Assembly: GCA_017656255.1 (NCBI GenBank)
Contig: JACDOE010000001.1
Coordinates: forward strand, 497,205-561,204
Direction: 5' to 3'
DNA length: 64,000 nt
Origin: Bacillaceae bacterium
GTDB lineage: Bacteria > Bacillota > Bacilli > JACDOE01
How positions within the stretch are numbered: the stretch's first letter is position 1; each line of letters begins with the position of its first letter. Under the pieces are notes generated by a model, which saw nothing but the letters and a program-made list of their open reading frames with translations, was not told the origin of the DNA and ran no database searches. A program made the position numbers and the translations under genes. Shown here piece after piece: positions 3,189-64,000 of the stretch.

Positions 3189-4248
3189 AAAACCTGCCAT
3201 TCTTCATATTAAATATTCACTTGATGATGGGCATGTCACCCCGCAAATTGTTAAAGTGAAAGGGTACCGTGGTATTATCATCAAAAACAAGTTTAATAGA
3301 GAATCCGCTTTTAAACACGTGACCACGGTCAAGAAGATCAAGAAGAACCCAAAAAAATTTATTAAAAAGAACAGAATAAAAGCACTCCATGTCCATCACG
3401 GTACGCTTGCCAGAAAGGTTATGTTTCTAAAAAAAGAGTACGGCCTTCCTCTGATTGTCAGTTTCCGGGGAAAAGACGCCACCGCTTATCCGAAGGATAA
3501 GAAAAACCTGCGTTTTCTGAAGAAAGTATTTAAAAAAGGGGATCTGTTTCTACCCGTCTGTCAGCATCTGAAAGAACGTCTGATTGAGCTTGGATGTCCT
3601 GAGAAAAAGATTAAGGTCCTTTACGGAGGCGTGGATATTAATCGGTTTGAATACCTCCCGCACCGTTTTTCACCGGATGAAAAAATACATTTTTTAGGTG
3701 TTGGCCGATTTGTTTCCAAGAAAGGGTTTGAAGATTTAATTCAGGCTTATGCCCGGATAAAAGAAAAGTATCCCCGCATTAAATTAACTTTGATCGGTGA
3801 AGGCGAACTGGCAGATTTGTATCGAAAATTAATTAAAAAGCATCAACTCGGGGGCGTCAAATTGAAATCCTGGGTGGATTACCGGAAGATTCAGCAATAT
3901 TACTATAAAGCACACGTTTTTTGCGCGCCCAGTTATACAGATAAACAGGGGAATCAGGAGGGTATTCCGAACACCTTAAAAGAGGCGATGGCGACAGGAA
4001 TGCCGGTCATTTCAACGTATCACTCCGGTATTCCGGAGCTGGTTGAGGATGGAAAATCAGGGCTGCTGGTACCGGAGCGTTCCGTTGAAGAACTTGCCCG
4101 GGCCATGGAATGGATCATTCTCAACCCGGACAAGTGGGAAGAATTCGGTCGTCACGGGCGTAAAAAAATTGAGACGGATTTCAACCAGAACAAACAACTT
4201 CAATTACAGAAAGACTATTACGATGAGTTGTTATCGAACAAGAAATAA
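3178..4248 (+). CDS. Glycosyltransferase family 4 (group 1)
   Basis: EAMATGMPVISTYHSGIPELVEDGKSGLLV motif. Start overlaps the stop of the upstream GT gene (translational coupling). Confidence 0.8.
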   Translation: MGDKKPAILHIKYSLDDGHVTPQIVKVKGYRGIIIKNKFNRESAFKHVTTVKKIKKNPKKFIKKNRIKALHVHHGTLARKVMFLKKEYGLPLIVSFRGKDATAYPKDKKNLRFLKKVFKKGDLFLPVCQHLKERLIELGCPEKKIKVLYGGVDINRFEYLPHRFSPDEKIHFLGVGRFVSKKGFEDLIQAYARIKEKYPRIKLTLIGEGELADLYRKLIKKHQLGGVKLKSWVDYRKIQQYYYKAHVFCAPSYTDKQGNQEGIPNTLKEAMATGMPVISTYHSGIPELVEDGKSGLLVPERSVEELARAMEWIILNPDKWEEFGRHGRKKIETDFNQNKQLQLQKDYYDELLSNKK

Positions 4249-5519
4249 ACATCAACTTTATCCGGGAATTCAACGTCTGGTAAAGTCTGTTCCGATTCGA
4301 CCGTATTCAGATAGAGACATCCTTTTTTACAGAGATGTTGAGAGGTTAGGACAGTTTGTTCTCCTTGATCCAGATGACACAAGTCGGTTATAACATAGTC
4401 TTCGTTGTTTGGACTGAGCATCAGTTTAACCTCAAGCCTCAGTTCCGATCGATTAAAGATATAGACAGAGACTTTGCGGCTGGATTCAAGTTCCTTTTCA
4501 ATTTTGACAGGCACGTCTTTTACATTTAAAACGTGATGTTGCTGGTTATATATCGCCGGTGAATCGACAGGGATTGAATCATGTTCAAATCTGTTTTGAC
4601 CCGTGTCTGTTACCGGTGATTCTTTGTGTTCGGAAATCAGCTCCGTTTGACCGGACTCCTCAATTTTGATATCTTCTGCCACTCTATCATTGATATTGTT
4701 TTGCTCAGTTGATTCCGCCTGCCGGTTTTCCGTTTCAGACGTGTCCGTTCCCGAATCGTCCTGATTATCGGGAACATCAAAGTAACGCTCCATATCTGTG
4801 TCATCATCATTTTGTTGATCCTGATCATTCGATTGGGGAGCAGAAGATTCGCCCAGATCATCGAACAAACCGTCCAGGCCGGCGTCATCGTCATGTTGTT
4901 GATCCTGATCGTTCGATTGGGGAGCAGAAGATTCGCCCAGATCATCGAACAAACCGTCCAGGCCGGCGTCATCGTCATGTTGTTGATCCTGATCGTTCGA
5001 TTGGGGAGCAGATGATTCACCCAGATCATCGAACAAATCATCCAGGTCAGTGTCATCGTCATGTTGTTGATCCTGATTGTTCGATTGCGGCTCTGATGGT
5101 TCCTCCAGGCCTTCAAAAATGTCATCAAGATCTGTATCGTGATCGGGTTGAATGGAATTGTCAGAACCATGGATACCCGTTGCGTGACCGGCTTTATCAT
5201 CAGATGCAGGTTCACGATTTTTTAGCAGGCTGTCCCAATCATGATGATGGTCTGCTTGATGAACATTTTCCCCGGGAAAATATACTTCAGGAAGACCGCG
5301 ATCAAGATCTGAAAACAAATCCCTGCCAGTTAAAACATTTCTATGACGCTGTTTTTTTCGCAGTGTTTTTTTCTTTTTCAGGGAATTCTTCCTCCTTTTT
5401 TCTTTTTTGCCGAACGGAAAAGTAAGATAGACAGATGTATAAACATTAACGGTCTGGTTGTTCTGATTTGAAGAGCGTAAGAAAGTGGACGATTTTGAAC
5501 ACCCGCGCCTCGGTTTCAT
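4218..5519 (-). CDS. Acidic tandem-repeat protein (basic N-terminus, four 28-aa D/Q/E-rich repeats); possible spore coat/crust component
   Basis: The ORF track extends to 5846, but that N-terminal extension overlaps the moaB-like gene. Internal ATG at 5519 is preceded by GAGGTGGTG and is the likely start (~433 aa). Four copies of xGLDxLFDDLGESSAPQSNDQDQQHDDD. No recognisable catalytic domain. Confidence 0.55.
   Translation of the reverse strand: MKPRRGCSKSSTFLRSSNQNNQTVNVYTSVYLTFPFGKKEKRRKNSLKKKKTLRKKQRHRNVLTGRDLFSDLDRGLPEVYFPGENVHQADHHHDWDSLLKNREPASDDKAGHATGIHGSDNSIQPDHDTDLDDIFEGLEEPSEPQSNNQDQQHDDDTDLDDLFDDLGESSAPQSNDQDQQHDDDAGLDGLFDDLGESSAPQSNDQDQQHDDDAGLDGLFDDLGESSAPQSNDQDQQNDDDTDMERYFDVPDNQDDSGTDTSETENRQAESTEQNNINDRVAEDIKIEESGQTELISEHKESPVTDTGQNRFEHDSIPVDSPAIYNQQHHVLNVKDVPVKIEKELESSRKVSVYIFNRSELRLEVKLMLSPNNEDYVITDLCHLDQGEQTVLTSQHLCKKGCLYLNTVESEQTLPDVEFPDKVDVYFLFDNNSS
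4801..5136. repeat. Four tandem copies of an 84-bp coding repeat inside the acidic protein gene
   Basis: Near-identical 84-85-nt units are visible directly in the nucleotide sequence (e.g. gtcatcgtcatgttgttgatcctgatcgttcgattggggagcagaagattcgcccagatcatcgaacaaaccgtccaggccggc repeated). They also generate spurious overlapping ORFs on both strands. Confidence 0.85.
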
Positions 5520-5691
5520 GGACACCACCTCATCAACTTGAGTAATCATAATTATATATATGGGGAAAAATCCGTGATGGGAATGTGCCCGGACGATTCT
5601 TTTTTTAAAAAAATGCCTGGAAACGTGATGAATTGACGGTGACATGGTAAAGTAGAAAATAAAGAAAAAACGGATGGGAAGGAGATATAAG

Positions 5692-6207
5692 ATGAGTGTA
5701 GAGGAACACAAAAAATACGCACCGAACCGTGTAAAATGTATGGTAATCACGGTCAGTGACACCAGGGATGAATCAACGGATAAAAGTGGGAAACTCATGA
5801 TCCGATTGCTGGAAGAACACGGGCATATGGTGACAAAGTATGACATTATCCGGGATGAATATGATGTGATTCAGCAGAAATTGAAAGAAGTTAAAGAAGA
5901 CCCCGATGTTCAAGCGATTCTGTTAAATGGCGGAACCGGCATTACGGCCCGGGACGTTACGTATGAAGCCGTTGAATCGCTGCTGGATAAAACTCTACCG
6001 GGATTCGGAGAAATTTTTCGTATGCTCAGTTATACGGAAGACATCGGATCAGCTGCCATTCTAAGCCGAGCGATTGCCGGCGTATATGGTAAAAAAGCCG
6101 TTTTTTCGACACCGGGAAGCAGTGGTGCAGTCAAACTGGCTATGAATAAACTCATTATTCCTGAACTGGGGCATATTATCAGGGAATTAAATCGACAGCA
6201 TACATAA
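5692..6207 (+). CDS. moaB: Molybdenum cofactor biosynthesis protein B (MoaB/MogA family)
   Basis: VITVSDTRDESTDKSG...LLNGGTGITARDVT...VFSTPGSSGA motifs of MogA/MoaB. RBS GGAAGGAG upstream of the ATG at 5692. The track's upstream ATG at 5674 lacks an RBS. Confidence 0.8.
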   Translation: MSVEEHKKYAPNRVKCMVITVSDTRDESTDKSGKLMIRLLEEHGHMVTKYDIIRDEYDVIQQKLKEVKEDPDVQAILLNGGTGITARDVTYEAVESLLDKTLPGFGEIFRMLSYTEDIGSAAILSRAIAGVYGKKAVFSTPGSSGAVKLAMNKLIIPELGHIIRELNRQHT

Positions 6208-6239
6208 CCTGGTGGGAGAGAGGAGAGAGGAGAGAGACG

Positions 6240-7082
6240 ATGGAACATATGAAGCTTGGCGAAATGGATATTTACTGGTTAAGCGGTGGGGAGATTCATC
6301 TGGATGGTGGTGCCATGTTCGGGGTTGTTCCCCGTGTTCTGTGGAGCAAAAAATACCCGGTCAACGATCAGAATCAGGTCCTGCTTCGTACAGATCCCAT
6401 CCTGATTCAGACTGCCGGGAAGAATATATTAATCGAATCAGGGATGGGGAACGATAAATTGTCGGACAAGCAGTTGAACATATTCGGCGTAACCGAACAG
6501 TCCGAAGTAGAAAAGGATCTAAATAAGCTGGGTCTATGTAAGAAAGACATTGATATGGTTCTGATGACTCATTTACATTTTGATCATGCCTGTGGACTGA
6601 CCAGGTGGGAAGGGGACAGGCTGGTCCCTGCTTTTCCTGATGCCGTACATGTCGTGAATCACATCGAATGGGAGGAAATGAAATCTCCCAATATCCGTTC
6701 CAGAAGTACTTACTGGGAAGAAAACTGGAAACCGATCACGGATCTTGTTCGTACTTATGATAAAGCGTATCGAGTGATAGATGGCATCGAACTGATTCAC
6801 ACAGGTGGTCACTCCAGGGGGCATGCGATCATCCGACTCGAATCGAAGGGGGAAAAGGCCTATCATCTGGCAGACATTCTTCCGACTCACGCCCATCAGA
6901 ACCCGCTCTGGGTGATGGCTTATGATGATTATCCCATGAATTCCATCTACGCCAAGCAAAAATGGATTCAACAGGCTGTGGAGGAAGATGCCTGGTTGTT
7001 ATTCTATCATGATCCTTATGTAAGAGCGTTAAAATGGGATCAGAAAGGAAATATCGTGGAACAACTGAAACGGACCGATTAA
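6240..7082 (+). CDS. MBL-fold metallo-hydrolase
   Basis: HLHFDHACG metal-binding motif. RBS GAGAGGAGAGAG precedes the ATG. Confidence 0.75.
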   Translation: MEHMKLGEMDIYWLSGGEIHLDGGAMFGVVPRVLWSKKYPVNDQNQVLLRTDPILIQTAGKNILIESGMGNDKLSDKQLNIFGVTEQSEVEKDLNKLGLCKKDIDMVLMTHLHFDHACGLTRWEGDRLVPAFPDAVHVVNHIEWEEMKSPNIRSRSTYWEENWKPITDLVRTYDKAYRVIDGIELIHTGGHSRGHAIIRLESKGEKAYHLADILPTHAHQNPLWVMAYDDYPMNSIYAKQKWIQQAVEEDAWLLFYHDPYVRALKWDQKGNIVEQLKRTD

Positions 7083-7091
7083 AGACAATAA

Positions 7092-7122
7092 ATCTCCCGA
7101 CCCAAAACCGGGAGATTTTTTA
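7092..7122. terminator. Bidirectional intrinsic terminator between convergent genes
   Basis: atctcccg-acccaaaa-cgggagat hairpin flanked by an A-run and a T-run. Confidence 0.7.
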
Positions 7123-7151
7123 TGATCAGTGGCTTGTTCAGCAGTTCGGAG

Positions 7152-8045
7152 TTAGGATATCCATTTTCTCAAACTGTTGAATTCCAGTTCCTCAAATTTT
7201 CCGAGTACCCGTTCATGGGTAAATTGAAAGAGACAGGAGTCAATATCACACGCGACATCAACATCTTTACGGATCTCGGCCAGCCGGCGCGAAGTCAGGA
7301 TCAGGTCTTTATTTTCCAGGAGTTTTGATTTCAAATTGCCTTTTACCCGATCAATCTCTTCAAACAGACGGTCAATATTTCCAAATTCGTTGAGTAGTCT
7401 CAGGGCTGTTTTGGGCCCGACACCCGGACAACCGGGAATATGATCGGAGGGGTCTCCCATCAACCCTTTATAATCAATGATTTGCGAAGGATGCTTCAGT
7501 CCGGTTATATCCGTAAAGTTATCAAGATGAATCAGTTCATAATTGGAAAATCCTTTTTTCATCATGATGACAGAGGTGTGTGCATCGATAAGTTGAAAAG
7601 TGTCCCGGTCACCGGTCAGAAGCAGGATGTCCAGGTCTTCACTGCCGAATCGGGATGCCAGTGTTCCCATGATATCATCCGCTTCGTAACCTTTGACACC
7701 GAAGATGGGAATATCAAATGATTTGACCAGTTCTTTAACCAGGTCAAACTGGGGAACCAGTTCCTCCGGTGGATCACTCCGATTCGCCTTATAATCGGGA
7801 TAGATTTCGTTACGAAAGGTATATTTCCCCATATCAAAGGCACAGGCTACATAAGTAGGATCAAACTTTCTGATTGCATCCAGCATATATTTTGTAAATT
7901 GATAGACGGCATTGGTATAGATGCCGGAACGTGTCTGCATCAGATTTCCATGAACCGCCGTGGCATAGAACCCCCGAAACAAAAGGGCCATACTGTCGAT
8001 AATCAATAGTCGGTTAAGGGAAGCCAGTGGTCGTTCGTTATTCAT
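7152..8045 (-). CDS. 5'-3' exonuclease (Pol I N-terminal domain family, YpcP/ExoR-like)
   Basis: LLIIDSMALLFRGFYA...GYEADDIMGTLA...HIPGCPGVGPKTA motifs (PIN-like 5'-nuclease plus H3TH). Confidence 0.8.
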   Translation of the reverse strand: MNNERPLASLNRLLIIDSMALLFRGFYATAVHGNLMQTRSGIYTNAVYQFTKYMLDAIRKFDPTYVACAFDMGKYTFRNEIYPDYKANRSDPPEELVPQFDLVKELVKSFDIPIFGVKGYEADDIMGTLASRFGSEDLDILLLTGDRDTFQLIDAHTSVIMMKKGFSNYELIHLDNFTDITGLKHPSQIIDYKGLMGDPSDHIPGCPGVGPKTALRLLNEFGNIDRLFEEIDRVKGNLKSKLLENKDLILTSRRLAEIRKDVDVACDIDSCLFQFTHERVLGKFEELEFNSLRKWIS

Positions 8046-8191
8046 TCAGTCCGATTCTCCTTTTTTAATTCTTCACCCATTGTACAATGAAGATCACAAA
8101 AACTCAAAAACAAAACGGGGAACGGCTGGCGAGACACAGGTTGAAAATGGTAAGATGTTCATACACGAACAGTACTTGGAGGGATGTAGCA

Positions 8192-10003
8192 GTGGAAGAG
8201 AATCAGCAAAAATTACCGGAGAGACAGGACATTTCTGAACAATATAAATGGAAACTGGAAGATCTTTATGCCAGTGATGACGAATGGGAAAAGGAATTTA
8301 AGCAGATTCAGCAATTAATTCCGCAAATTGAAGCTTATCAGGGGAAGCTGGCACAATCTGACGATCAACTGCTGACTTGCCTGAAATTACAGGATGATAT
8401 CTCCAAACTGATGGAGAGAGTCTTTGTTTATGCGAGAATGAGACGGGATGAGGATAACCGAAGGGGTGTTTATCAGGGCCTGACTGACAAGGCTGGTTCT
8501 TTAAGCACTGAAGTCAATCGCGCCACTTCATTTATTGTCCCTGAGATTCTTGCCATTCCGGAAGAAAAATTGAAAACATTTATCGATCAGAATAAAGATC
8601 TGCACGTGTACCGGCATTATATTGATGAAATTCTCAGAATGAAAGATCATATACTTCCACCGGAACAGGAACAGTTGCTGGCCCAGGTAGGAGAAGTGTC
8701 CCGTGCACCACAGACGATATATACCATGATTAACAATGCCGACATGACTTTTCCTGCGATTCAGGATGAAAACGGAAATGAAGTGGAAGTGACCCACGGG
8801 CGATATATCCAGTTGATGGAGAGTAAAAGCCGCCGTGTAAGAAAAGCGGCATTCGAAGCCCTGTACAGCAGTTATGAAAAACAGGTGAATACGATTGCTT
8901 CAACCCTGAACAGCAGCATCAAGAAAGATGTTTTCTACGCCCGTGTCCGCAAATATCCGTCAGCTCTGGAGGCATCTCTGGATGAGGACAATGTGCCAAT
9001 TGACGTCTATCATAACCTGATCAAGACGGTTCATGACAATCTTGACAGCATGTATGAATATGTGTCGCTCAGAAAGCAGATTCTGGGGCTGGATGAATTG
9101 CATATGTACGATTTGTACACGCCTCTTGTTTCCGATGTCGACATAAAATATCCGTATGAAGAAGCGAAGAATCTGGTCCTGAACGGCCTTAAGCCACTGG
9201 GAGAGGATTACCAGAATGTGCTTCAGGAAAGTTTTCAGAACGGATGGATTGATGTATTTGAAACGAAAGGGAAGACAAGTGGCGCCTATTCATGGGGAGC
9301 CTACGGCACCCATCCATATGTTTTGATGAATTATCAACCCAATATCGATAATGTGTTTACACTGGCTCACGAACTGGGGCATGCGCTTCATTCCTATTAT
9401 TCCGATAAGCACCAGCCCTATATTTACGCCCAGTATACCATATTTGTGGCCGAAGTAGCCTCGACGGTAAACGAATCTCTGTTAATGGCGCATCTATTGA
9501 AAAATATGACAGATAAAAAGAAACGGATGTATCTGCTTAATCATTATCTGGAACAGTTCCGGGGCACGGTATATCGGCAGACCATGTTCGCCGAATTTGA
9601 AAAAATGACGCATGAAAAAGTGGAGGCGGGTGAGGCGTTGACCCCTGATCTGTTAAAAGAGATGTATCGGGACCTGAATATCAAATATTATGGTCCGGAA
9701 ATGGTGATCGACAGTCAGATCGACGTGGAGTGGGCCAGAATTCCCCATTTCTATACGCCATTTTATGTGTACAAATATGCCACCGGATTCTCTGCCGCCA
9801 CAGCTCTGTCCAGAAAAATTCTTGAAGAAGGGGAAGAAGCGGTTAACCGGTATCTCACTTTCTTAAAAAGCGGAAGTTCGGATTATCCCATTGAATTATT
9901 GAAAACAGCCGGCGTGGATATGTCTTCACCTGAGCCGGTTCAGCAGGCCCTTGATGTATTCAGGGAAATGGTCGGAGAATTAAAGGCTTTGATTCAAGAA
10001 TAA
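8192..10003 (+). CDS. pepF: Oligoendopeptidase F (M3B family)
   Basis: HELGHALHSY zinc motif and an M3B-like length. GTG at 8192 has a GGAGGGA RBS 7 nt upstream. The ORF-track ATG at 8087 has no RBS and adds a non-homologous 35-aa extension. Confidence 0.8.
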   Translation: MEENQQKLPERQDISEQYKWKLEDLYASDDEWEKEFKQIQQLIPQIEAYQGKLAQSDDQLLTCLKLQDDISKLMERVFVYARMRRDEDNRRGVYQGLTDKAGSLSTEVNRATSFIVPEILAIPEEKLKTFIDQNKDLHVYRHYIDEILRMKDHILPPEQEQLLAQVGEVSRAPQTIYTMINNADMTFPAIQDENGNEVEVTHGRYIQLMESKSRRVRKAAFEALYSSYEKQVNTIASTLNSSIKKDVFYARVRKYPSALEASLDEDNVPIDVYHNLIKTVHDNLDSMYEYVSLRKQILGLDELHMYDLYTPLVSDVDIKYPYEEAKNLVLNGLKPLGEDYQNVLQESFQNGWIDVFETKGKTSGAYSWGAYGTHPYVLMNYQPNIDNVFTLAHELGHALHSYYSDKHQPYIYAQYTIFVAEVASTVNESLLMAHLLKNMTDKKKRMYLLNHYLEQFRGTVYRQTMFAEFEKMTHEKVEAGEALTPDLLKEMYRDLNIKYYGPEMVIDSQIDVEWARIPHFYTPFYVYKYATGFSAATALSRKILEEGEEAVNRYLTFLKSGSSDYPIELLKTAGVDMSSPEPVQQALDVFREMVGELKALIQE

Positions 10004-22226: not shown

Positions 22227-22721
22227 ATGCATTTACACAAGTATGAACGAATCTGGCTCATGTTTGGTGGTGCAAGTCTGGTTGTATTTCTTGCTGTCAT
22301 CGGGATAACAGCTTTTTTCATGGGAGATCAACCTCCCAGTGGCGCTTTTTGTGCACCGGTATTCGCCAATGCCGACACGGTTGACCCGGAAAAAGTGACC
22401 GAAACACCACCATTTAATGAACCGGGTATAAAGAAAGTCGGGGAAAACCAGTACGTGGTGACTATGGTTGCTTATTCATTTGGTTTTCAGCCCAGCAATA
22501 TTGAGATTCCTGCCGGTGCAGAAGTTTATTTTCAGGTCACCAGTAAAGACGTGGTTCACGGATTCGAAATACCGGGAACCAATGTCAACATGATGATTAC
22601 ACCCGGTTATGTCAACACGATCCGATATACATTTGACGAACCCGGAAATTATCTAATTCTTTGTAACGAGTACTGTGGTGTGGGACACCAGTTTATGAGT
22701 ACAACGGTGGAGGTGAAATAG
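22227..22721 (+). CDS. cbaB: ba3-type cytochrome c oxidase subunit II (CuA cupredoxin)
   Basis: CuA ligands HGF...CNEYCGVGHQFM. Single N-terminal TM helix. ~160 aa, typical of ba3-type subunit II. Confidence 0.8.
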   Translation: MHLHKYERIWLMFGGASLVVFLAVIGITAFFMGDQPPSGAFCAPVFANADTVDPEKVTETPPFNEPGIKKVGENQYVVTMVAYSFGFQPSNIEIPAGAEVYFQVTSKDVVHGFEIPGTNVNMMITPGYVNTIRYTFDEPGNYLILCNEYCGVGHQFMSTTVEVK

Positions 22722-22722
22722 G

Positions 22723-24372
22723 ATGAATACAAGAAAATCTGTACTGGACGTTCGTGATGCAAATTTGAGTATGGCGCATATGTATGCCGGTTATGCGGCG
22801 GTGTTTATCGGGGCTATCGCTGGATTGCTCCAGGGACTGGTTCGCGGCGGATTGATTGAGTTGCCGGCCGGCATCGGCTATTATCAACTGTTGACGGCCC
22901 ACGGTATTTTGCTGGCACTGGTATTTACTACATATTTTATCATCGGTTTCTTCTTCTCGGGCATGAGTAAGAACATGGGGTCCCTCTATGATGGTCCGAG
23001 AAAGGCCGGATGGGCCGGTTTCTACATTATGACGGCAGGTGTTATCCTGACCACGATTATGGTGCTACTAAATGAAGGTACCGTTCTATACACCTTCTAC
23101 GCTCCGTTACAGGCGTCTCCGTATTTTTATATCGGCCTGACGCTTGTGGTAGTAGGAAGCTGGATTAGCGGTTATGCCATGTTCGGCCAGTTGTATAAGT
23201 GGAAGAAAGAGAACAGGGGCAAAGTTTCTCCTTTGTTCAGTTACCTTGCTGTGGTGACTATGCTGTTATGGCAGATTGCCACGCTCGGTGTCGCGGCTAC
23301 TGTATTGTTCCAGTTTATCCCGTGGTCATTCGGTTGGGTAGAGAAAATTGATGTGTTGCTCAGCCGTACGCTGTTCTGGTATTTCGGTCACCCGCTGGTT
23401 TATTTCTGGTTGTTGCCTGCCTATGTCGGCTGGTATGTGATTATACCCAAAATCATCGGCGGCAAAATTTTCAGCGATTCCCTGGCACGGCTTGCCTTTA
23501 TTCTGTTCCTGATCTTTTCCATGCCGGTCGGCTTTCACCATCAATTGCTGGAGCCCGGTATTTCACCCTTCTGGAAGTACCTGCAGGTTGTGCTGACGTT
23601 TATGGTTATTATTCCGTCATTGATGACGGCATTCGCCATGTTCGCCACATTTGAAACAGCAGGGCGGATGAAAGGGTCAACCGGATTATTCGGCTGGTTT
23701 AAAAAATTGCCCTGGAGTGATGTGAGATTTTTCGCGCCGATGATGGGAATGTTGATCTTCATCCCCGGTGGAATCGGCGGGATTGTCAATGCGAGTCACC
23801 AGATCAACCAGATGGTGCATAACACCCTGTTCATTACCGGGCATTTTCACCTGACCGTAGCGACCACGGTTGTTGTCAGTTTCTTTGGATTCACCTACTG
23901 GCTGGTGCCGGTTCTGACCGGTCGCAAATTAACTGCTAAAATGAACAAACTGGGCATTGTTCAAACCCTTTTGTGGATCGTCGGTATGTTAATTATGTCT
24001 ACAGCAATGCATACGGTTGGTCTTCTGGGATCACCGAGAAGAACAGCGTTTACGACCTATCAGGATCATCCGGATGCGGTGATGTGGATGCCGTATCACG
24101 TTGTGATGGCCATCGGTGGAGTCATCCTGTTCATCGCAGCCATGTTGATGATTTACAACTTCATCTATCTGGCATTCTTTGCACCGCGTGGTGTGGAAGA
24201 ATATCCGATGGGTGAAGTGGCCAATGAGGCTGAAAAAACACCGATGATTCTGGAAAACTGGAAAATCTGGATTGGTGTTTCGGCAGCCCTGATTCTGATC
24301 GCTTACACCGTCCCTTTGATCGGAATTATCGAGAATTCACCGCCTGGTTCACCGCCGTATCGATTCTGGTAA
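22723..24372 (+). CDS. cbaA: ba3-type cytochrome c oxidase subunit I
   Basis: 549-aa heme-copper oxidase subunit I with 12+ TM helices and conserved His ligands (HHQ, HFH). Coupled 1 nt after the subunit II stop. Confidence 0.8.
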   Translation: MNTRKSVLDVRDANLSMAHMYAGYAAVFIGAIAGLLQGLVRGGLIELPAGIGYYQLLTAHGILLALVFTTYFIIGFFFSGMSKNMGSLYDGPRKAGWAGFYIMTAGVILTTIMVLLNEGTVLYTFYAPLQASPYFYIGLTLVVVGSWISGYAMFGQLYKWKKENRGKVSPLFSYLAVVTMLLWQIATLGVAATVLFQFIPWSFGWVEKIDVLLSRTLFWYFGHPLVYFWLLPAYVGWYVIIPKIIGGKIFSDSLARLAFILFLIFSMPVGFHHQLLEPGISPFWKYLQVVLTFMVIIPSLMTAFAMFATFETAGRMKGSTGLFGWFKKLPWSDVRFFAPMMGMLIFIPGGIGGIVNASHQINQMVHNTLFITGHFHLTVATTVVVSFFGFTYWLVPVLTGRKLTAKMNKLGIVQTLLWIVGMLIMSTAMHTVGLLGSPRRTAFTTYQDHPDAVMWMPYHVVMAIGGVILFIAAMLMIYNFIYLAFFAPRGVEEYPMGEVANEAEKTPMILENWKIWIGVSAALILIAYTVPLIGIIENSPPGSPPYRFW

Positions 24373-43195: not shown

Positions 43196-43486
43196 ATGCA
43201 GGTTTTTTGGCATGACAGAATCACATCAGAGGAACAATTGCGAACCATCCTAGGCTATCCCGGAAAAGTGGTACAGCGAAAAGTTGTAAATGCCCTGGAT
43301 CACCACTGTCGTTATTTTATCAGTCAATCTCCGTATGTATTATTGTCTACATCAGATAGTTCCGGAAACTGTGATATATCACCGCGCGGTGATACACCGG
43401 GGTTTGTCCGCGTGCTGGACGATCGGCATCTTTTTATACCGGAACGTCCAGGAAACAGAAGACTGGATTCACTGACCAACCTATAG
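43196..43486 (+). pseudogene. Truncated pyridoxamine 5'-phosphate oxidase-family (FMN-binding split barrel) gene
   Basis: 96-aa N-terminal fragment (GNCDISPRGDTPGFVRVLDDRHLFIPERPGNRRLDSL) ends prematurely. Family members are ~200 aa. Confidence 0.45.
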
Positions 43487-47590: not shown

Positions 47591-48631
47591 TTATTGATGC
47601 CGGTTTCGATAAAGCAGATAGATAAAGAAAGGTGCGCCGATTCCAGAGACAAAGATGCCGGCTGGAAGATCAAGCGGCAAAAAAGCTGTTCGCGCGACTA
47701 CATCAGCTAAAAGAACAATCATACCGCCAATCATGGCTGACACGGGAACCAGGCTTCCAAACGATCTGCCGATTAGTTTGCGTGCGATATGAGGGGCCAT
47801 TAACCCCACAAATCCAATACCGCCTGCAAAAGCTACGGCAGCCCCTGCCAGCGCAACACTGACAAACAATAATAAGAAACGATGCAGGGGAACGTTGACT
47901 CCCAGACCTGTTGCCACGTGATCTCCGAGCTGCTGGGCGTTAGCCGTTCGAACGAAAAGCAGGGTCAGCGGAATAAAAATAAGCACCCATGGCAACAACC
48001 CATAAACATCATCCCAGGTCGCCCCGTATACACTTCCGGTTAACCAGAGGTACGCCTGGGGAGTTGAATAACTGTTACCCAGCACAATCATCATGGTCGT
48101 GACGGCATTTAACGCCGCTGTTAAACCAATCCCCACCAGGACAAGCCGAATCGGCGTCACCCCTTTTTTCCAGGCCAAAAAATAGAGAAAGATCGATACA
48201 GTACCTGCGCCGGCAATGGCAACCGGCGGCAACCATTTGATACCGAATGAATCTGCAAAATACGTAATAAACATCACCGCTGCCACCGACGCCCCGCTTG
48301 TAATCCCAATGATGTCCGGTGAACCGAGGGGATTTCGGATTATCCCCTGCAGAATCAGACCTGAAACCCCCAGTGCGGCACCGGCAAGCCATGCAAGAGT
48401 CATACGCGGTAGCCTTAATGAATCTATGATAAATGTGTACTCACCGCTGCCTATTCCCAGTAGGTGTTTGATTACAGTGAACGGATGCAACATGGTACTT
48501 CCGATGGATAAACCGGCCAGAAATATAAAGGTGGATATAAATACCAGTACCGTAAAAACGGTTAACGTTTTCTTTTCAAACTGAAAAGAGACTGACCCCG
48601 ACCGGCTGCGATATACCGACATTTTGTTCAT
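47591..48631 (-). CDS. FecCD-family iron-siderophore ABC permease (second permease)
   Basis: The FecCD-type membrane domain begins at MNKMSVYRS. The 128-aa Arg-rich N-terminal extension in the ORF track overlaps the upstream permease and is not credible. 4-nt ATGA overlap with the upstream gene. Confidence 0.75.
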
Positions 48632-49641
48632 TCTCTGTTGAACCCCCTGCGCGCTATATAAATAAAGAACGGTGTTCCGATTATTGCGGTCATAACCCCG
48701 ATGGGAACCTCCTGTGGCATGATGACGAAGCGGGCTGCCACATCTGCGAGCAACAATAGACTGGCTCCGGTGAAGGCGCAAAAAGGGATAATCCAGCGGT
48801 AATCCATCCCGACAAGGCCTCGCACGATATGCGGAACCACTAAACCGATAAATCCGATCGATCCTCCGATCGCCACCGATCCACCGGCCAAAAACACAAT
48901 CACCACCGCCATCGATGTTTTGACCAGGATAATGCGCTGTCCCAGCCCTTTTGCGATGTCTTCGCCTGACGTGAGAATGTTGACCGGATGCGCCAGAATA
49001 AAAGCTGCAAGCCATCCCCCTGCCGTGAAAGGCAGAATCGGTTTGAGCATATCCATCGTTCTGCCTGCCACCGATCCGGCTAACCAGAACAGAGCCCCTT
49101 CCAGGTTTTGCTCACTGATCACCAAAAGCGCCTGGGTTAAAGAAACAAACAAAGCCGTTATGGCCGCCCCCGCTAAAACAATTTTAATCGGAGACAGCCC
49201 GTCTCTGCCGAGTGAACCCAAAAAATAAACCATGACTGCCGCAATCGCAGCTCCCAGAAAGGCGATCCACATATAATGCGTTAAAGATGTGACGGAAAAA
49301 AAGGCCATGGCTAAAACCACAAAAAACACAGCCCCGGCATTGACTCCGAAAATACTGGGAGATGCCAGCGGGTTTCGTGTTAACGCCTGCATTAAAGCGC
49401 CGGCGATAGCCAGGCTGGCTCCGATCACAGACGCAATGACCGCCCGGGAAAATCGGGTTGTTGTAACAATAAGATGCTCGGTTGAATCCGGATCAAAATG
49501 AATAAAGGCTTCTATAACGGTATGAAAAGCGATCGGCGTCTGGCCGAAGGCAATACTCAAAATAAAAGAAATGACAAAAAGACAGATAACCAGTATGATG
49601 CCGATCATTTTAGCAGGTGTACGAGATAAAAGATGTCTCAT
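48628..49641 (-). CDS. FecCD-family iron-siderophore ABC permease (first permease)
   Basis: 337 aa with 9-10 TM helices and a FecCD signature region. Confidence 0.8.
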   Translation of the reverse strand: MRHLLSRTPAKMIGIILVICLFVISFILSIAFGQTPIAFHTVIEAFIHFDPDSTEHLIVTTTRFSRAVIASVIGASLAIAGALMQALTRNPLASPSIFGVNAGAVFFVVLAMAFFSVTSLTHYMWIAFLGAAIAAVMVYFLGSLGRDGLSPIKIVLAGAAITALFVSLTQALLVISEQNLEGALFWLAGSVAGRTMDMLKPILPFTAGGWLAAFILAHPVNILTSGEDIAKGLGQRIILVKTSMAVVIVFLAGGSVAIGGSIGFIGLVVPHIVRGLVGMDYRWIIPFCAFTGASLLLLADVAARFVIMPQEVPIGVMTAIIGTPFFIYIARRGFNRE

Positions 49642-59631: not shown

Positions 59632-59663
59632 AAGAAAAAGCCACAGCAAATGTGGCTTTATTC

Positions 59664-59948
59664 TTAAACAGCATAAATGGAAAAATTTCCTCTTCCAAAC
59701 AGCGATTTATAATATTCAATGTTGATCGTATTCAGTTGTCCGGCGATGGATTCATCGATCAGTAAGGTGATCCCTTCCACTTCTTCGACAACATCTCGAT
59801 CCCGTTTTGACTCTTCCAGAGCCATGACAAAATTGGGACCTCCTCAGCCAAAGCCCTGGACATCGATTCGAATGTAGTAATCTGTTTTACCGTGTTCCTG
59901 CAGGATATTTCTTAATTCTTTCGCTGCATCTCTGGATATGTTAACCAT
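59664..59948 (-). CDS. HesB/IscA-like protein with in-frame TGA at the conserved first Cys position (candidate selenoprotein)
   Basis: Minus-strand translation gives MVNISRDAAKELRNILQEHGKTDYYIRIDVQGFG-[TGA]-GGPNFVMALEESKRDRDVVEEVEGITLLIDESIAGQLNTINIEYYKSLFGRGNFSIYAV. It aligns with IscA (RLGVRTSGCSGMAY...[18 protein letters not shown]), with the TGA (59844-59846) exactly at the GCSG cysteine. Absent from the ORF track because the TGA splits it into two sub-60-aa pieces. Confidence 0.55.
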
Positions 59949-59969: not shown

Positions 59970-60353
59970 TTATTTTGCTGCATCGATTGCCTGCATCAAA
60001 TTTTGCTCAACGCGCTCTGCGGTTTCACGCAGTGACGAATCATCCACCATGTTGATCAGTTGAGTAGGTTTCGGCATGCCGATGTAGTTTTGTCCGTCTT
60101 TTTCATAGACGACAATCTTACACGGAAGAAAATATCCCACCATGGAATTAGTCGTCAACACCTTGTTCGCTTCCCCCGGACTGCACACTTCAAGAACCCG
60201 GTAAGGTTGTTGAAAATCGAAACCTTTGTTTTGCAGAGTTGCCGTAATGTCAAAATCCCAGAGGATCCCGAACTTTCGCTCCTTCAATGTGGCTTCCAGT
60301 GCTTTGACCGCTTCATCCAGACTCTTGTCGGTCGTAACGGTATAATGAAACAT
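59970..60353 (-). CDS. DUF302-domain protein
   Basis: 127 aa with a DUF302-like fold pattern. Sits between the HesB-like ORF and the TusA gene. Confidence 0.55.
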   Translation of the reverse strand: MFHYTVTTDKSLDEAVKALEATLKERKFGILWDFDITATLQNKGFDFQQPYRVLEVCSPGEANKVLTTNSMVGYFLPCKIVVYEKDGQNYIGMPKPTQLINMVDDSSLRETAERVEQNLMQAIDAAK

Positions 60354-60477: not shown

Positions 60478-60705
60478 TTAATTTTTGCGTACATAGAACT
60501 TGTATACGCCATCTTCTTCTTCGTGTTTAATCAATTCATGATTCGTTTGCTTGACCCAGCTTTGAAAATCTTTTACAGAACCTTTGTCCGTAGACAAAAG
60601 CTCCATTACCTGGCCGGGCTCCATGGAATCGATGGCTTTTTTAGCCTTCACAACAGGCATCGGACAGGAAAGTCCTTTTGCATCTACCGTTTGATCCACT
60701 TTCAT
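60478..60705 (-). CDS. TusA-like sulfurtransferase
   Basis: CPxP motif (GLSCPMPVVKAKKAI). 75 aa. Confidence 0.8.
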   Translation of the reverse strand: MKVDQTVDAKGLSCPMPVVKAKKAIDSMEPGQVMELLSTDKGSVKDFQSWVKQTNHELIKHEEEDGVYKFYVRKN

Positions 60706-61956: not shown

Positions 61957-62352
61957 TTAGAAAGTAACGGTTACGTCGGCATCATAGGCAAAATCAAGGA
62001 AAGTAGCGGCTCCGCCGACTTCAATACCGTCTACAAAATCTTCCTTCTCCAGTCCCATAACATCCATGGTCATCTGGCAGGCGATGAATTTCACGCCGGA
62101 TTCTTTTGCAACTTCAAGAAGTTCACTGATGCTGGGCACCCCTGCATTTTTAAATCCTTCCATGAAGTGTTCTTTACCAGGTCCCATGCTTAACTGCTTA
62201 TGTGCTTCTTTATGAATGATATTCAGTCCTTCGAAAGTGAAGAAGATCTCTACTTCTGCATCGGTTGCTGCCGCAGCAGTTCCGATATTCAATGCTTTAT
62301 AAGCGTCATCCAATCCACCAGAGCTTGCAATAATTGCTACTTTTTTTGCCAT
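61957..62352 (-). CDS. DsrE/DsrF-like sulfur-relay family protein (YrkE-like)
   Basis: KVAIIASSGGLD...FIACQMTMD pattern of DsrE-like proteins. AAGGAGAGG RBS before MAKKV. Confidence 0.65.
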   Translation of the reverse strand: MAKKVAIIASSGGLDDAYKALNIGTAAAATDAEVEIFFTFEGLNIIHKEAHKQLSMGPGKEHFMEGFKNAGVPSISELLEVAKESGVKFIACQMTMDVMGLEKEDFVDGIEVGGAATFLDFAYDADVTVTF

Positions 62353-62435
62353 TTCTTTACCTCTCCTTTTTATTTTAATCATTTTTTTAAAATACGTAAA
62401 CAGGTTAGGGTATAAAATTGTTAAAAAATTTTCAT

Positions 62436-63014
62436 TTATTTTTCAATTGGCCCATTCCACTGGCTCATTCCGGGCAACACATTTTTCAAGTTCTTAAACC
62501 CTTTATCGGACAGTAACTGGCAGGCCATATCACTGCGGTTCCCGGTACGGCAAACCACATAGATTTCTTTATCTTTATCCAGTTCATCTATATGCTGTTC
62601 AAGTTCGCCGAATGAATAGTTAACGGCTCCGGGAATGTGACCGAAGGCATATTCTGCTTCTTCTCTGACATCAAGGATAATCGCATTCGGATCATCAATT
62701 TTGGCTTGTAGTTCATCATTGGAAATGGTGTGCGGATATTTCTTTTCTTCTTTCACTTCATCCGGGTTTGACTTGCGGATGTAGTGCTTCAGCACACCCT
62801 CTTCATCCAGGCTGCCCAGGTAATCATGCCCGGTGCTGTTTGCCCAGCCTTTGATATCAGCCAGTGACCCTTTATCAGTCGCGATAACCTCCAGAACCTG
62901 ACCCGGTTCCAGGTTTTCCATCGCCTTTTTGGTTTTTACGACAGGCATCGGGCAGGACAATCCCTGGCAATCCAATGTTTCGTCAGCTTTAATCTGGTTG
63001 GTAATGTTGGACAT
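62436..63014 (-). CDS. TusA-rhodanese fusion sulfurtransferase (YrkF-like)
   Basis: N-terminal CPxP (GLSCPMPVVKTKKAM). C-terminal rhodanese with active-site loop CRTGNRS. Confidence 0.8.
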   Translation of the reverse strand: MSNITNQIKADETLDCQGLSCPMPVVKTKKAMENLEPGQVLEVIATDKGSLADIKGWANSTGHDYLGSLDEEGVLKHYIRKSNPDEVKEEKKYPHTISNDELQAKIDDPNAIILDVREEAEYAFGHIPGAVNYSFGELEQHIDELDKDKEIYVVCRTGNRSDMACQLLSDKGFKNLKNVLPGMSQWNGPIEK

Positions 63015-63040: not shown

Positions 63041-63358
63041 TTATTCTACATCTCCGGTCCAGGCCATCATGCCACCGACCATGTTTTTCAAATTTTTAAA
63101 GCCCTGTTGTGACAGGAATTCACAGGCCATTCCACTGCGGTTTCCACTCCGGCAGATCATAATTGTCTCTTGATTCGGATCAATCTCAGAGGCTCTTGCT
63201 GCGATTTCTGAGAGCGAAATCAGTTTCGCACCGGGTATATGGCCGCTTGCATATTCATCCGGTTCACGAACATCAATCAGCTGAACCGGTTTTCCACTTT
63301 CAATCATCTGTTTGACTTCGTCAGGAGTGATGTTTTCCCATTTCTGATCTACAAACAT
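63041..63358 (-). CDS. Single-domain rhodanese (thiosulfate sulfurtransferase-like)
   Basis: Active-site loop CRSGNRSGMA. GGAGGAGG RBS. Confidence 0.8.
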   Translation of the reverse strand: MFVDQKWENITPDEVKQMIESGKPVQLIDVREPDEYASGHIPGAKLISLSEIAARASEIDPNQETIMICRSGNRSGMACEFLSQQGFKNLKNMVGGMMAWTGDVE

Positions 63359-63400: not shown

Positions 63401-63416
63401 TACCCCTATGGGTACA
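63401..63416. promoter_or_regulatory. CsoR/CstR-type operator-like palindrome (site 2)
   Basis: + strand TTACCCCTATGGGTAC (minus strand GTACCCATAGGGGTAA): a G/C-tract pseudo-palindrome of the ATACC...GGGGTAT type. It lies ~45 nt upstream of the rhodanese start. Confidence 0.4.
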
Positions 63417-63475
63417 TGGTAAAGTATAATGAATGAGTGTCAAGTTTAGAAGTTTTTTGGTTTCTCTCTATACAT

Positions 63476-63493
63476 ATACCCCCATAGGTATCT
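63476..63493. promoter_or_regulatory. CsoR/CstR-type operator-like palindrome (site 1), overlapping the predicted transcription start
   Basis: Minus strand ATACCTATGGGGGTATAT, immediately downstream of the -10 hexamer. Confidence 0.45.
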
Positions 63494-63503
63494 TCAAGAA
63501 TTA

Positions 63504-63532
63504 TTATAGGTGTGATTAATGTCATTGTCAAT
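63504..63532 (-). promoter_or_regulatory. Sigma-A promoter for the rhodanese/TusA/DsrE/PDO operon (TTGACA-N17-TATAAT)
   Basis: Minus strand TTGACAatgacattaatcacaccTATAAT, perfect consensus hexamers. Confidence 0.7.
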
Positions 63533-63845: not shown

Positions 63846-64000
63846 ATTGTTTCTCAACCTGTATCATATAAAATTGATCGTGAATACTTCTGGATGCCGT
63901 CACGTGAAACCCTTCACTGGATAGAACCGGGATGAGCTCCTCTTTATCAATCCGTTCATGGTACGGAGGGCCCTGTTCCATCTCTTTTTTCTCCCAGTCT
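63846..64000 (-). CDS. C-terminal fragment of an unidentified protein (gene continues beyond window end)
   Basis: Open minus-strand frame ...DWEKKEMEQGPPYHERIDKEELIPVLSSEGFHVTASRSIHDQFYMIQVEKQ ends at the TGA at 63846. No start inside the window. Confidence 0.35.

Follow-up and report, generated by a model that had tools for sequence, protein, structure and literature searches.

Reading frame and product

The sequence analysed here is a 64,000-nt window from a metagenome-assembled genome (MAG) of a Bacillaceae bacterium (assembly GCA_017656255.1, contig JACDOE010000001.1, positions 497,205–561,204), and all coordinates below are those of this window. On its minus strand it contains an open reading frame (ORF) interrupted by an in-frame TGA codon (59664..59948): starting from ATG 59948–59946, 34 codons lead to the TGA (plus-strand positions 59844–59846), which is followed by 59 codons and a TAA stop codon (59666–59664). 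From the comparisons presented below, this ORF is very probably one gene, coding for a 94-residue selenoprotein with a HesB/IscA fold and forming the last cistron of a seven-gene sulfur operon, and the UGA (59844..59846, minus strand) is almost certainly a selenocysteine (Sec, U) codon, within the motif G-U-G-G-P.

The product of the read-through frame would be MVNISRDAAKELRNILQEHGKTDYYIRIDVQGFG-U-GGPNFVMALEES...SIYAV or, in full, MVNISRDAAKELRNILQEHGKTDYYIRIDVQGFG-[TGA]-GGPNFVMALEESKRDRDVVEEVEGITLLIDESIAGQLNTINIEYYKSLFGRGNFSIYAV, with the peptide IDVQGFG-U-GGPNFVMALEESK across the Sec site. This 94-residue protein does not contain a single Cys, leaving the Sec as its sole chalcogen residue. 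Re-reading of the minus strand reproduced both the 94-codon frame with its TGA and the flanking peptides that had been quoted in the initial annotation of this DNA.

In GenBank, the gene call comprises only the part from an internal ATG at 59825, giving a 53-aa product (MBO8170831.1, H0Z33_02955) with the record name 'MAG: hypothetical protein H0Z33_02955 [Bacillaceae bacterium]', which is the sole database entry for the gene. The Gly-Gly codons directly 3′ of the UGA form a GGAGG sequence (59825–59843, minus strand) that lies 13 nt before the internal ATG, and its resemblance to a ribosome binding site probably explains this 53-aa call. A scan of the window for ORFs split by TGA returned 90 mechanical candidates, almost all of which are shadows of longer ORFs.

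Conservation of the TGA codon

The 59 residues encoded downstream of the TGA, used as the query of an exhaustive phmmer search, yielded eight cluster representatives: four were fragments of 53–55 aa starting right after the TGA column, and the other four were full-length proteins reading G-W-GGP. When extended in frame upstream, the fragments pass through a TGA into the conserved N-terminal half. A profile search produced 101 matches, consisting of 71 forms with a Trp (W) at the Sec column, 15 fragments, two Cys forms and, additionally, more distant ErpA proteins. The DNA underlying the W entries has a TGA at this position, and the deposited protein does not match the DNA under translation table 11; these entries are gene-caller artefacts from short metagenome contigs translated with genetic code 4. 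Entries P0003, P0004 and P0007–P0075 (loci L004, L007, L008, L009 and the JGI loci) are selenoproteins disguised in this way as Trp proteins.

Taken at face value, the Trp in 71 database homologues would suggest that the UGA is decoded without selenium, either by near-cognate read-through with Trp or Cys or by the use of genetic code 4 or 25. We consider this very improbable, because the W entries are artefacts of DNA that has TGA and because TGA serves as the stop codon for 11 of the window's 46 longest ORFs, indicating a standard genetic code. Also, the same column is occupied by Cys in homologues and solved structures, and the gene is linked in its relatives to those for tRNA-Sec, SelA, SelB and SelD, as described below.

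The TGA was present at the Sec column in 32 out of 32 distinct homologous sequences and, beyond these, in a variant locus (L041) and in two cultured strains (L045 and L046). A scan of JGI metagenomes identified 33 loci, with TGA at the expected codon in 32 of them. The remaining one is L041, in which the variant motif G-U-C-P (9995–9997) is one residue shorter than G-U-G-G-P and has a Cys right after the Sec. The residues flanking the Sec are invariant on both sides, including R27, G34, G36, G37, P38, L44 and E46, among others. The presence of TGA in all 32 sequences, together with these invariant residues on its two sides, excludes a sequencing error or a pseudogene private to this genome. 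The gene of a second Bacillaceae genome (L003) codes for a protein that is 56 % identical and keeps both the TGA and the hairpin described below, pointing to selection along both lineages.

The initial annotation had proposed aligning homologues to see whether they carry Cys at this position. In contrast to the 32 TGA sequences, true Cys forms are rare (P0076 and P0088); both have Cys-rich tails, and P0076 passes model TIGR00049. No close Cys form was found among 5.8 billion proteins. A word-indexed search with the Cys-substituted protein retrieved the 53-aa fragment as the only match, and the closest sequences in the single genome contig scan were two Cys-type IscA genes from archaea (34 % identity). 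These searches bear on the possibility that the TGA derives, by mutation or by an assembly error, from the TGT or TGC codon of a Cys-type IscA-like gene. One substitution separates TGA from either Cys codon and the source is a metagenome assembly, but TGA is shared by all the independent relatives, whose sequences come from NCBI, JGI, ENA and Logan assemblies, there is no close Cys form in the proteins searched, and a conserved covarying hairpin lies downstream. A damaged Cys codon is, therefore, barely conceivable.

A conserved hairpin downstream of the UGA

The UGA is followed by a conserved hairpin (59808..59824, minus strand), a putative SECIS core composed of a 7-bp stem (UGGCUCU/AGAGUCA) closed by a GGA loop (59817–59815) that begins 26 nt 3′ of the UGA. 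Bacterial Sec insertion sequences (bSECIS) are described as having a loop of 3–9 nt with G in the first two loop positions, a stem of 4–16 bp, a spacing of 16–37 nt and a minimum free energy (MFE) of −7.5 or lower (PMC13188914). The window sequence falls within these ranges: its stem of 7 bp carries a GGA loop at a spacing of 26 nt, and the 48-nt segment that follows the UGA has a folding energy of −15.6 kcal/mol, with −7.1 kcal/mol for the core alone. In the window sequence only, the core is extended by a lower stem (AUUUUGU/ACGGGAU) into a longer hairpin (59799..59833, minus strand); this lower or outer stem is not conserved in the relatives and was ruled out as part of the functional core. 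The proposal in the initial annotation of a bSECIS-compatible hairpin starting ca. 11 nt 3′ of the UGA thus holds in that the hairpin exists and has bSECIS properties, but only its upper stem is conserved, the outer pairs being specific to the window.

Among the relatives, there is a stem of 6–8 bp at a fixed distance from the UGA, with a GGA loop in nearly all of them; the exceptions are one GGU loop and one UGGAU loop with a spacing of 25 nt. Over the 32 distinct sequences, 96.1 % of the stem cells contain standard pairs, whereas only 33–55 % do so when the 3′ partners are slid by 1–3 columns, and none of 500 shuffles reached the observed pairing or covariation score. Two-sided changes were observed in alignment columns 37–49 (G.U, A-U, U-A and U.G), 34–52 (C-G and U-A) and 36–50, where the G-C pair changes to A-U in locus L044 via a Ser-to-Leu replacement. 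The pair swaps occur through residue changes, with Ala, Ser and Thr alternating in the 5′ arm and Ser, Thr, Ala and Leu in the 3′ arm; since they require amino acid changes, the RNA constrains the protein. Codon usage along the stem is also frozen: at codon +8, the fourfold-degenerate third position is always T (32/32 sequences); Leu is encoded by CTG at +9 in 31/32 but by five different codons at +5, and Glu by GAG at +11 in 32/32 but mostly by GAA at +21. Immediately after the UGA, the relatives freely use all four codons for Gly+1, Gly+2 and Pro+3.

Recoding through SelB and the GGA-loop hairpin is well supported by this pattern. On its arrival at the UGA (59846–59844), the ribosome would encounter an mRNA hairpin able to recruit SelB with Sec-tRNA(Sec); Sec would then be inserted into G-U-G-G-P, where A-type Fe-S carriers have their first cluster-ligand Cys, and translation would go on to the TAA (59666–59664).

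RNAalifold and a terminator scan also flagged a small helix, GGCU...GGUC, whose loop contains the UGA (59836–59856, minus strand; alignment columns 10–13/19–22). It is formed by the flanking Gly codons, does not show two-sided covariation and is probably coincidental.

Fold and family assignment

With Cys put at the TGA, the product matched the Pfam family Fe-S_biosyn (PF01521) with 30.4 bits (cutoff 26.3). In phmmer alignments to solved chains of the IscA family (2APN, 1NWB, 1S98, 1R94 and 1X0G), the TGA column is the ligand Cys, equivalent to TSG-C-SGMAY in Escherichia coli IscA and to GGG-C-SGFQY in HI1723, and it also coincides with the ligand Cys of IscA, SufA and ErpA from the PDB. Both results sustain the earlier claim that the two halves of the frame are IscA-like and that the TGA occupies the position of the first conserved Cys. 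The model obtained with AlphaFold for P0007, a member of the same clade, had a pLDDT of 84.6 and was similar to IscA/SufA (TM 0.7–0.84) and to DsrR (2K4Z; TM 0.78).

The window protein therefore resembles IscA, SufA and ErpA (PF01521; 1S98, 1R94, 1X0G, 2D2A and 2APN) in its fold and in having a Sec where these have their first ligand Cys. Unlike them, it is not encoded beside isc or suf genes, and its chain stops short of the C-terminal CxC segment seen in the PDB homologues; the three Cys ligands that define A-type carriers (Cys-X(n)-Cys-X-Cys, including the C-terminal CxC) were not found in the window protein. It also scores far under the equivalog cutoffs for IscA (30.9 against 150.6) and ErpA (40.9 against 117).

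The HesB-like selenoprotein family is reported in Kryukov and Gladyshev (2004) and in Zhang et al. (2006). In the 2006 set it had 11 members, with a Bacillus sp. sequence already among them (PMC1794560, suppl. 4), and by 2016 it was known from 86 organisms, ranking sixth in frequency among bacterial selenoprotein families (PMC5029168); its family entry is TIGR01911, with the motif UxGP (PMC13188914). The window protein agrees with this family in its size and fold (ca. 90–105 aa, IscA/HesB), in its G-U-G-G-P motif, which fits UxGP, and in the SECIS situated immediately downstream of the Sec codon. Its identity to the HesB-like member of A. metalliredigenes is 45.7 % over 81 aa, and in the alignment with 10 founding HesB-like members the TGA falls on their U. 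All the testable criteria from the literature thus place the window protein in the HesB-like selenoprotein family.

The best NCBIfam match of the window protein was to TIGR01911 (HesB_rel_seleno), with 56.5 bits, under the curated cutoff of 66.35, and it did not reach the cutoff of NF038090 (IscA_HesB_Se) either (48 bits against 85). All the clade members tested were under both cutoffs, with scores of 41–60 bits for NF038090. However, these models also leave out most of the founding members: only one of six passed TIGR01911, with four scoring 30–55 bits, less than the window protein, and NF038090 was passed only by the D. vulgaris protein (113.9 bits), so that two out of six founders passed either model. 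This indicates that the cutoffs delimit narrow subfamilies and not the family as described in the literature. Both models overlook the clade and most founders; a model trained on the present set of homologues would bring to light a considerable hidden fraction of the Bacillaceae selenoproteome. Annotation is affected in the same sense: GenBank and RefSeq show the gene and its relatives as hypothetical proteins of 35/40 aa plus 53 aa, including the cultured strains Aquibacillus albus (GCA_016908325.1) and Bacillus sp. T3 (CP137761.1), in which the TGA gene is intact and annotated as such split pieces.

The window protein differs from the founding members in its C-terminal end. The 10 complete founder sequences all extend past the last strand into a tail with 1–5 Cys, whereas in the window protein, in that of L003 and in the two large Bacillaceae subgroups the chain ends at this strand and contains no Cys. 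The clade thus represents a minimal version of the HesB-like proteins, having a single Sec and lacking Cys, and occurs in spore-formers that are aerobic and culturable. The protein family is known; what has escaped annotation is its Cys-free form within a sulfur-detoxification operon, a form that is common among relatives of Bacillus.

Selenocysteine machinery

In five of the homologous loci (L026, L035, L036, L037 and L038), a tRNA-Sec gene (anticodon TCA) is located ca. 3 kb upstream of the homologue, and selB, tRNA-Sec, selA, a Sec-encoding selD and the HesB-like gene are contiguous. Loci L035 and L026 have the order selB (TIGR00475, 361–370 bits), tRNA-Sec, selA (TIGR00474, 551–575 bits) and selD (TIGR00476, 376 bits), with the HesB-like TGA gene directly downstream. 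A tblastn map showed that selD adjoins the HesB-like gene in 11 loci. In the seven loci where it was read (L026, L029, L030, L034, L035, L037 and L043), selD is itself Sec-encoded, with the sequence KAG-TGA-GCK in 7/7, and it forms with the HesB-like gene a tandem of selenoprotein genes beside selA, tRNA-Sec and selB. The selD gene of L035, at about 8590–9576, reads KAG-TGA-GCKIGP; the proteins of this locus are encoded at 4937–6817 (SelB, minus strand), 7022–8431 (SelA, minus strand) and 8617–9576 (SelD, plus strand).

The best named relatives of the SelA from L035 all belong to the Bacillaceae (Virgibacillus, Pueribacillus, Siminovitchia, Lentibacillus, Halobacillus, Aquibacillus and Bacillus suaedaesalsae), indicating that these loci are Bacillaceae-like and that the Sec trait is not rare in this family. 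The remark in the initial annotation that HesB-like selenoproteins are not usual in Bacillaceae was, therefore, overstated, given the Bacillus sp. member in the 2006 founding set and the occurrence of SelA in many Bacillaceae genera. Its central proposal of a HesB/IscA-like selenoprotein, on the other hand, is upheld by the retention of the TGA, by the covarying bSECIS hairpin and by the linkage to sel genes in a sister subclade.

Several observations weigh against the reading of the window gene as a functional selenoprotein gene. No selA, selB, selD or tRNA-Sec gene was found within the 64-kb window, in which Rfam (at the gathering threshold) and tRNA scans gave no matches, and there was no H0Z33 entry among the best 120 of ca. 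8000 matches of a SelA search. Folding of the single sequence was not significant (MFE −20.8, z = −1.67), with 19 of 200 shuffles equalling it, and the stem positions are mostly invariant and overlap the conserved peptide L-E-E, so that part of their conservation could be at the protein level. Additionally, the AAGGAG Shine-Dalgarno sequence lies 16 nt 5′ of the ATG, which is a long spacing. The weight of the hairpin evidence resides in the comparison with relatives and not in the fold of a single sequence.

The lack of Sec machinery in the window would also agree with the gene being a relic, that is, a true member of the family in a MAG lineage that has lost the machinery, and from which only a 34-residue peptide and, perhaps, a 53-residue restart at ATG 59825 would be translated. 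Sister genomes are documented to have lost selenoproteins and the Sec trait (PMC1794560), and GGAGG is situated 5′ of the internal ATG at a distance of 13 nt. Nevertheless, the frame is undamaged before and after the TGA, the hairpin retains every conserved feature, and TGA and hairpin are both kept in L003 in spite of an identity of 56 %; as to the GGAGG, it merely corresponds to Gly-Gly codons that vary freely in the relatives. We consequently regard a relic as quite improbable, and we favour a functional selenoprotein gene. From this we infer the existence of Sec machinery in this organism, as the gene implies, without proving it, that UGA is decoded as Sec.

The sulfur operon and its probable control

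The Sec gene is the last of seven co-directional genes in the window, all of them on the minus strand. The operon starts with a gene for a single-domain rhodanese (63041..63358), followed by genes for a TusA-rhodanese fusion (YrkF/CstA-like; 62436..63014), a DsrE2-like sulfur carrier (YrkE-like; 61957..62382; PF13686, 134.6 bits), a fusion of rhodanese with a persulfide dioxygenase of metallo-beta-lactamase fold (YrkH/CstB-like, named after PMC9918477; 60737..61870) and a TusA-like sulfur carrier (YrkI-like; 60478..60705; PF01206, 96.7 bits). A DUF302 gene (59970..60353; PF03625, 70 bits) is directly upstream of the Sec gene. The DUF302, TusA, rhodanese and DsrE neighbours named in the initial annotation were found as claimed using Pfam. 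A predicted intrinsic terminator, with a 9-bp stem and a T run, marks the end of the operon 5 nt past the stop codon (59637..59659, minus strand).

Upstream of the first gene, the putative control region (63401..63531, minus strand) contains two promoter-like sites, each of them followed by a CsoR/CstR-type inverted repeat. The first site (63531–63503) matches the sigma-70 consensus in 12/12 positions and is followed by ATACCTATGGGGGTAT (63491–63476); the second promoter-like site (63443–63416) is followed by TACCCATAGGGGTA (63414–63401). These candidate repeats resemble, by pattern only, the cst operator of S. mitis, ATACCCTTATGGGGTAT, which is bound by the persulfide sensor CstR (PMC8643695). 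A repressor gene of the CsoR family, yrkD or cstR, was not visible in the window up to position 64000. The operator-like repeats suggest control by a persulfide sensor, and the succession of a strong promoter with CstR-type operators, seven genes and a terminator suggests that expression is probably induced by sulfane sulfur.

The operon is comparable to the yrkDEFHIJ-ydfQ cluster of B. licheniformis, which is controlled by YrkD/CstR and protects against sulfane sulfur (PMC9918477), and to the cst cluster of S. aureus, in that the window contains homologues of YrkE, YrkF, YrkH and YrkI and candidate CstR-type repeats. Unlike it, the described YrkD/CstR clusters contain neither a HesB-like gene nor a selenoprotein; conversely, the position inside a CstR-type sulfur operon sets the window gene apart from the HesB-like family as described.

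The sulfur-relay context is recurrent, appearing in L003, in cultured A. albus (L046) and in ca. 15 metagenomic loci, and a DUF302 gene is also a neighbour in L007. The Sec gene of L003 and of A. albus comes after the gene for TauE (YrkJ), occupying the slot that is held in B. licheniformis by the thioredoxin-like ydfQ, and a gene of the CsoR family is found beside the homologous operon of A. albus. The family therefore has two contexts, a selD/Sec-machinery cluster and sulfur-relay operons.

The region 5436–15035 of L046 contains two successive yrk-like sulfur operons, with DUF202 and CsoR-family repressor genes between them; the first is closed by the Sec gene and the second by a DUF302 gene, after which come COX1 and COX2. 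Genes for cytochrome oxidase are also present in the window (22227–24372). A possible second HesB-like copy after the second DUF302 gene of A. albus was discarded, because the small ORFs found there code for unrelated membrane proteins. In loci L004–L006 (Logan SRR16379917/18/21), the Sec gene is situated right after the 3′ end of a gene for a family 1 encapsulin shell protein (NF041155, 88.5 bits), which constitutes a third type of neighbourhood.

Possible function of the protein

The absence of Cys, and with it of the CxC ligands, makes the protein an unlikely Fe-S carrier of the classical type. It could still operate as an Fe-S carrier if the Sec served as a cluster ligand within an oligomer or with a partner supplying the other ligands, which would agree with the IscA/SufA fold, with the location of the Sec at a ligand position and with the Cys-rich tails kept by the Cys forms P0076 and P0088, the former of which passes TIGR00049. 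Against this, the chain has no other Cys and ends ahead of the CxC segment, and the genetic context is always sulfur relay or Sec machinery and never isc, suf or nif. There is, moreover, a precedent for an IscA fold in a sulfur-oxidation cluster, DsrR (2k4z). We thus consider a role in Fe-S carriage improbable.

DsrR, from Allochromatium vinosum, is akin to the window protein in having an IscA fold and in being encoded in a sulfur-oxidation cluster together with relay proteins of the DsrE/TusA type, whereas the sequence identity is only about 20 %. DsrR is not known to have a Sec or the ligand Cys.

The genetic context points tentatively to a class of function in which the protein is a chalcogen carrier or resolver, a possibility that we would rate at somewhat better than one in three. 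As the leading possibility, the lone, highly nucleophilic selenol might take up and pass on, or reductively resolve, sulfane sulfur (as Se-S-S(H)) or selenium (as Se-Se), and its partners might be the TusA, DsrE and rhodanese relay proteins encoded alongside, or SelD. The regulation of the operon and the chemistry of the protein are, in this sense, what we infer from the arrangement of the genes. More doubtful is the broader idea that the Cys-free, tail-less, Sec-only HesB-like proteins are a distinct, unannotated clade extending over the Bacillaceae, possibly acting as dedicated chalcogen shuttles that would link persulfide detoxification with the delivery of selenium to selenophosphate synthetase. 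The two sharply defined contexts, one in the selD operon and the other in the CstR-type sulfur operon, make the carrier and resolver hypotheses directly testable. With the family itself already known, the useful and testable points are how large the clade is, that current annotation does not detect it and that its genes occur in two tight contexts.

Other reading frames of the window

Three further observations concern other regions of the window. The ORF at 4218–5846 (minus strand) codes for 542 aa and had no Pfam match. A 96-aa ORF at 43196–43486 (plus strand) covers no more than the N-terminal half of a PNPOx domain, perhaps because the gene is truncated. Lastly, two FecCD permease ORFs (47591–49015 and 48628–49641, minus strand) overlap by ca. 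390 nt, and the start of the longer one is therefore probably later than the listed one.

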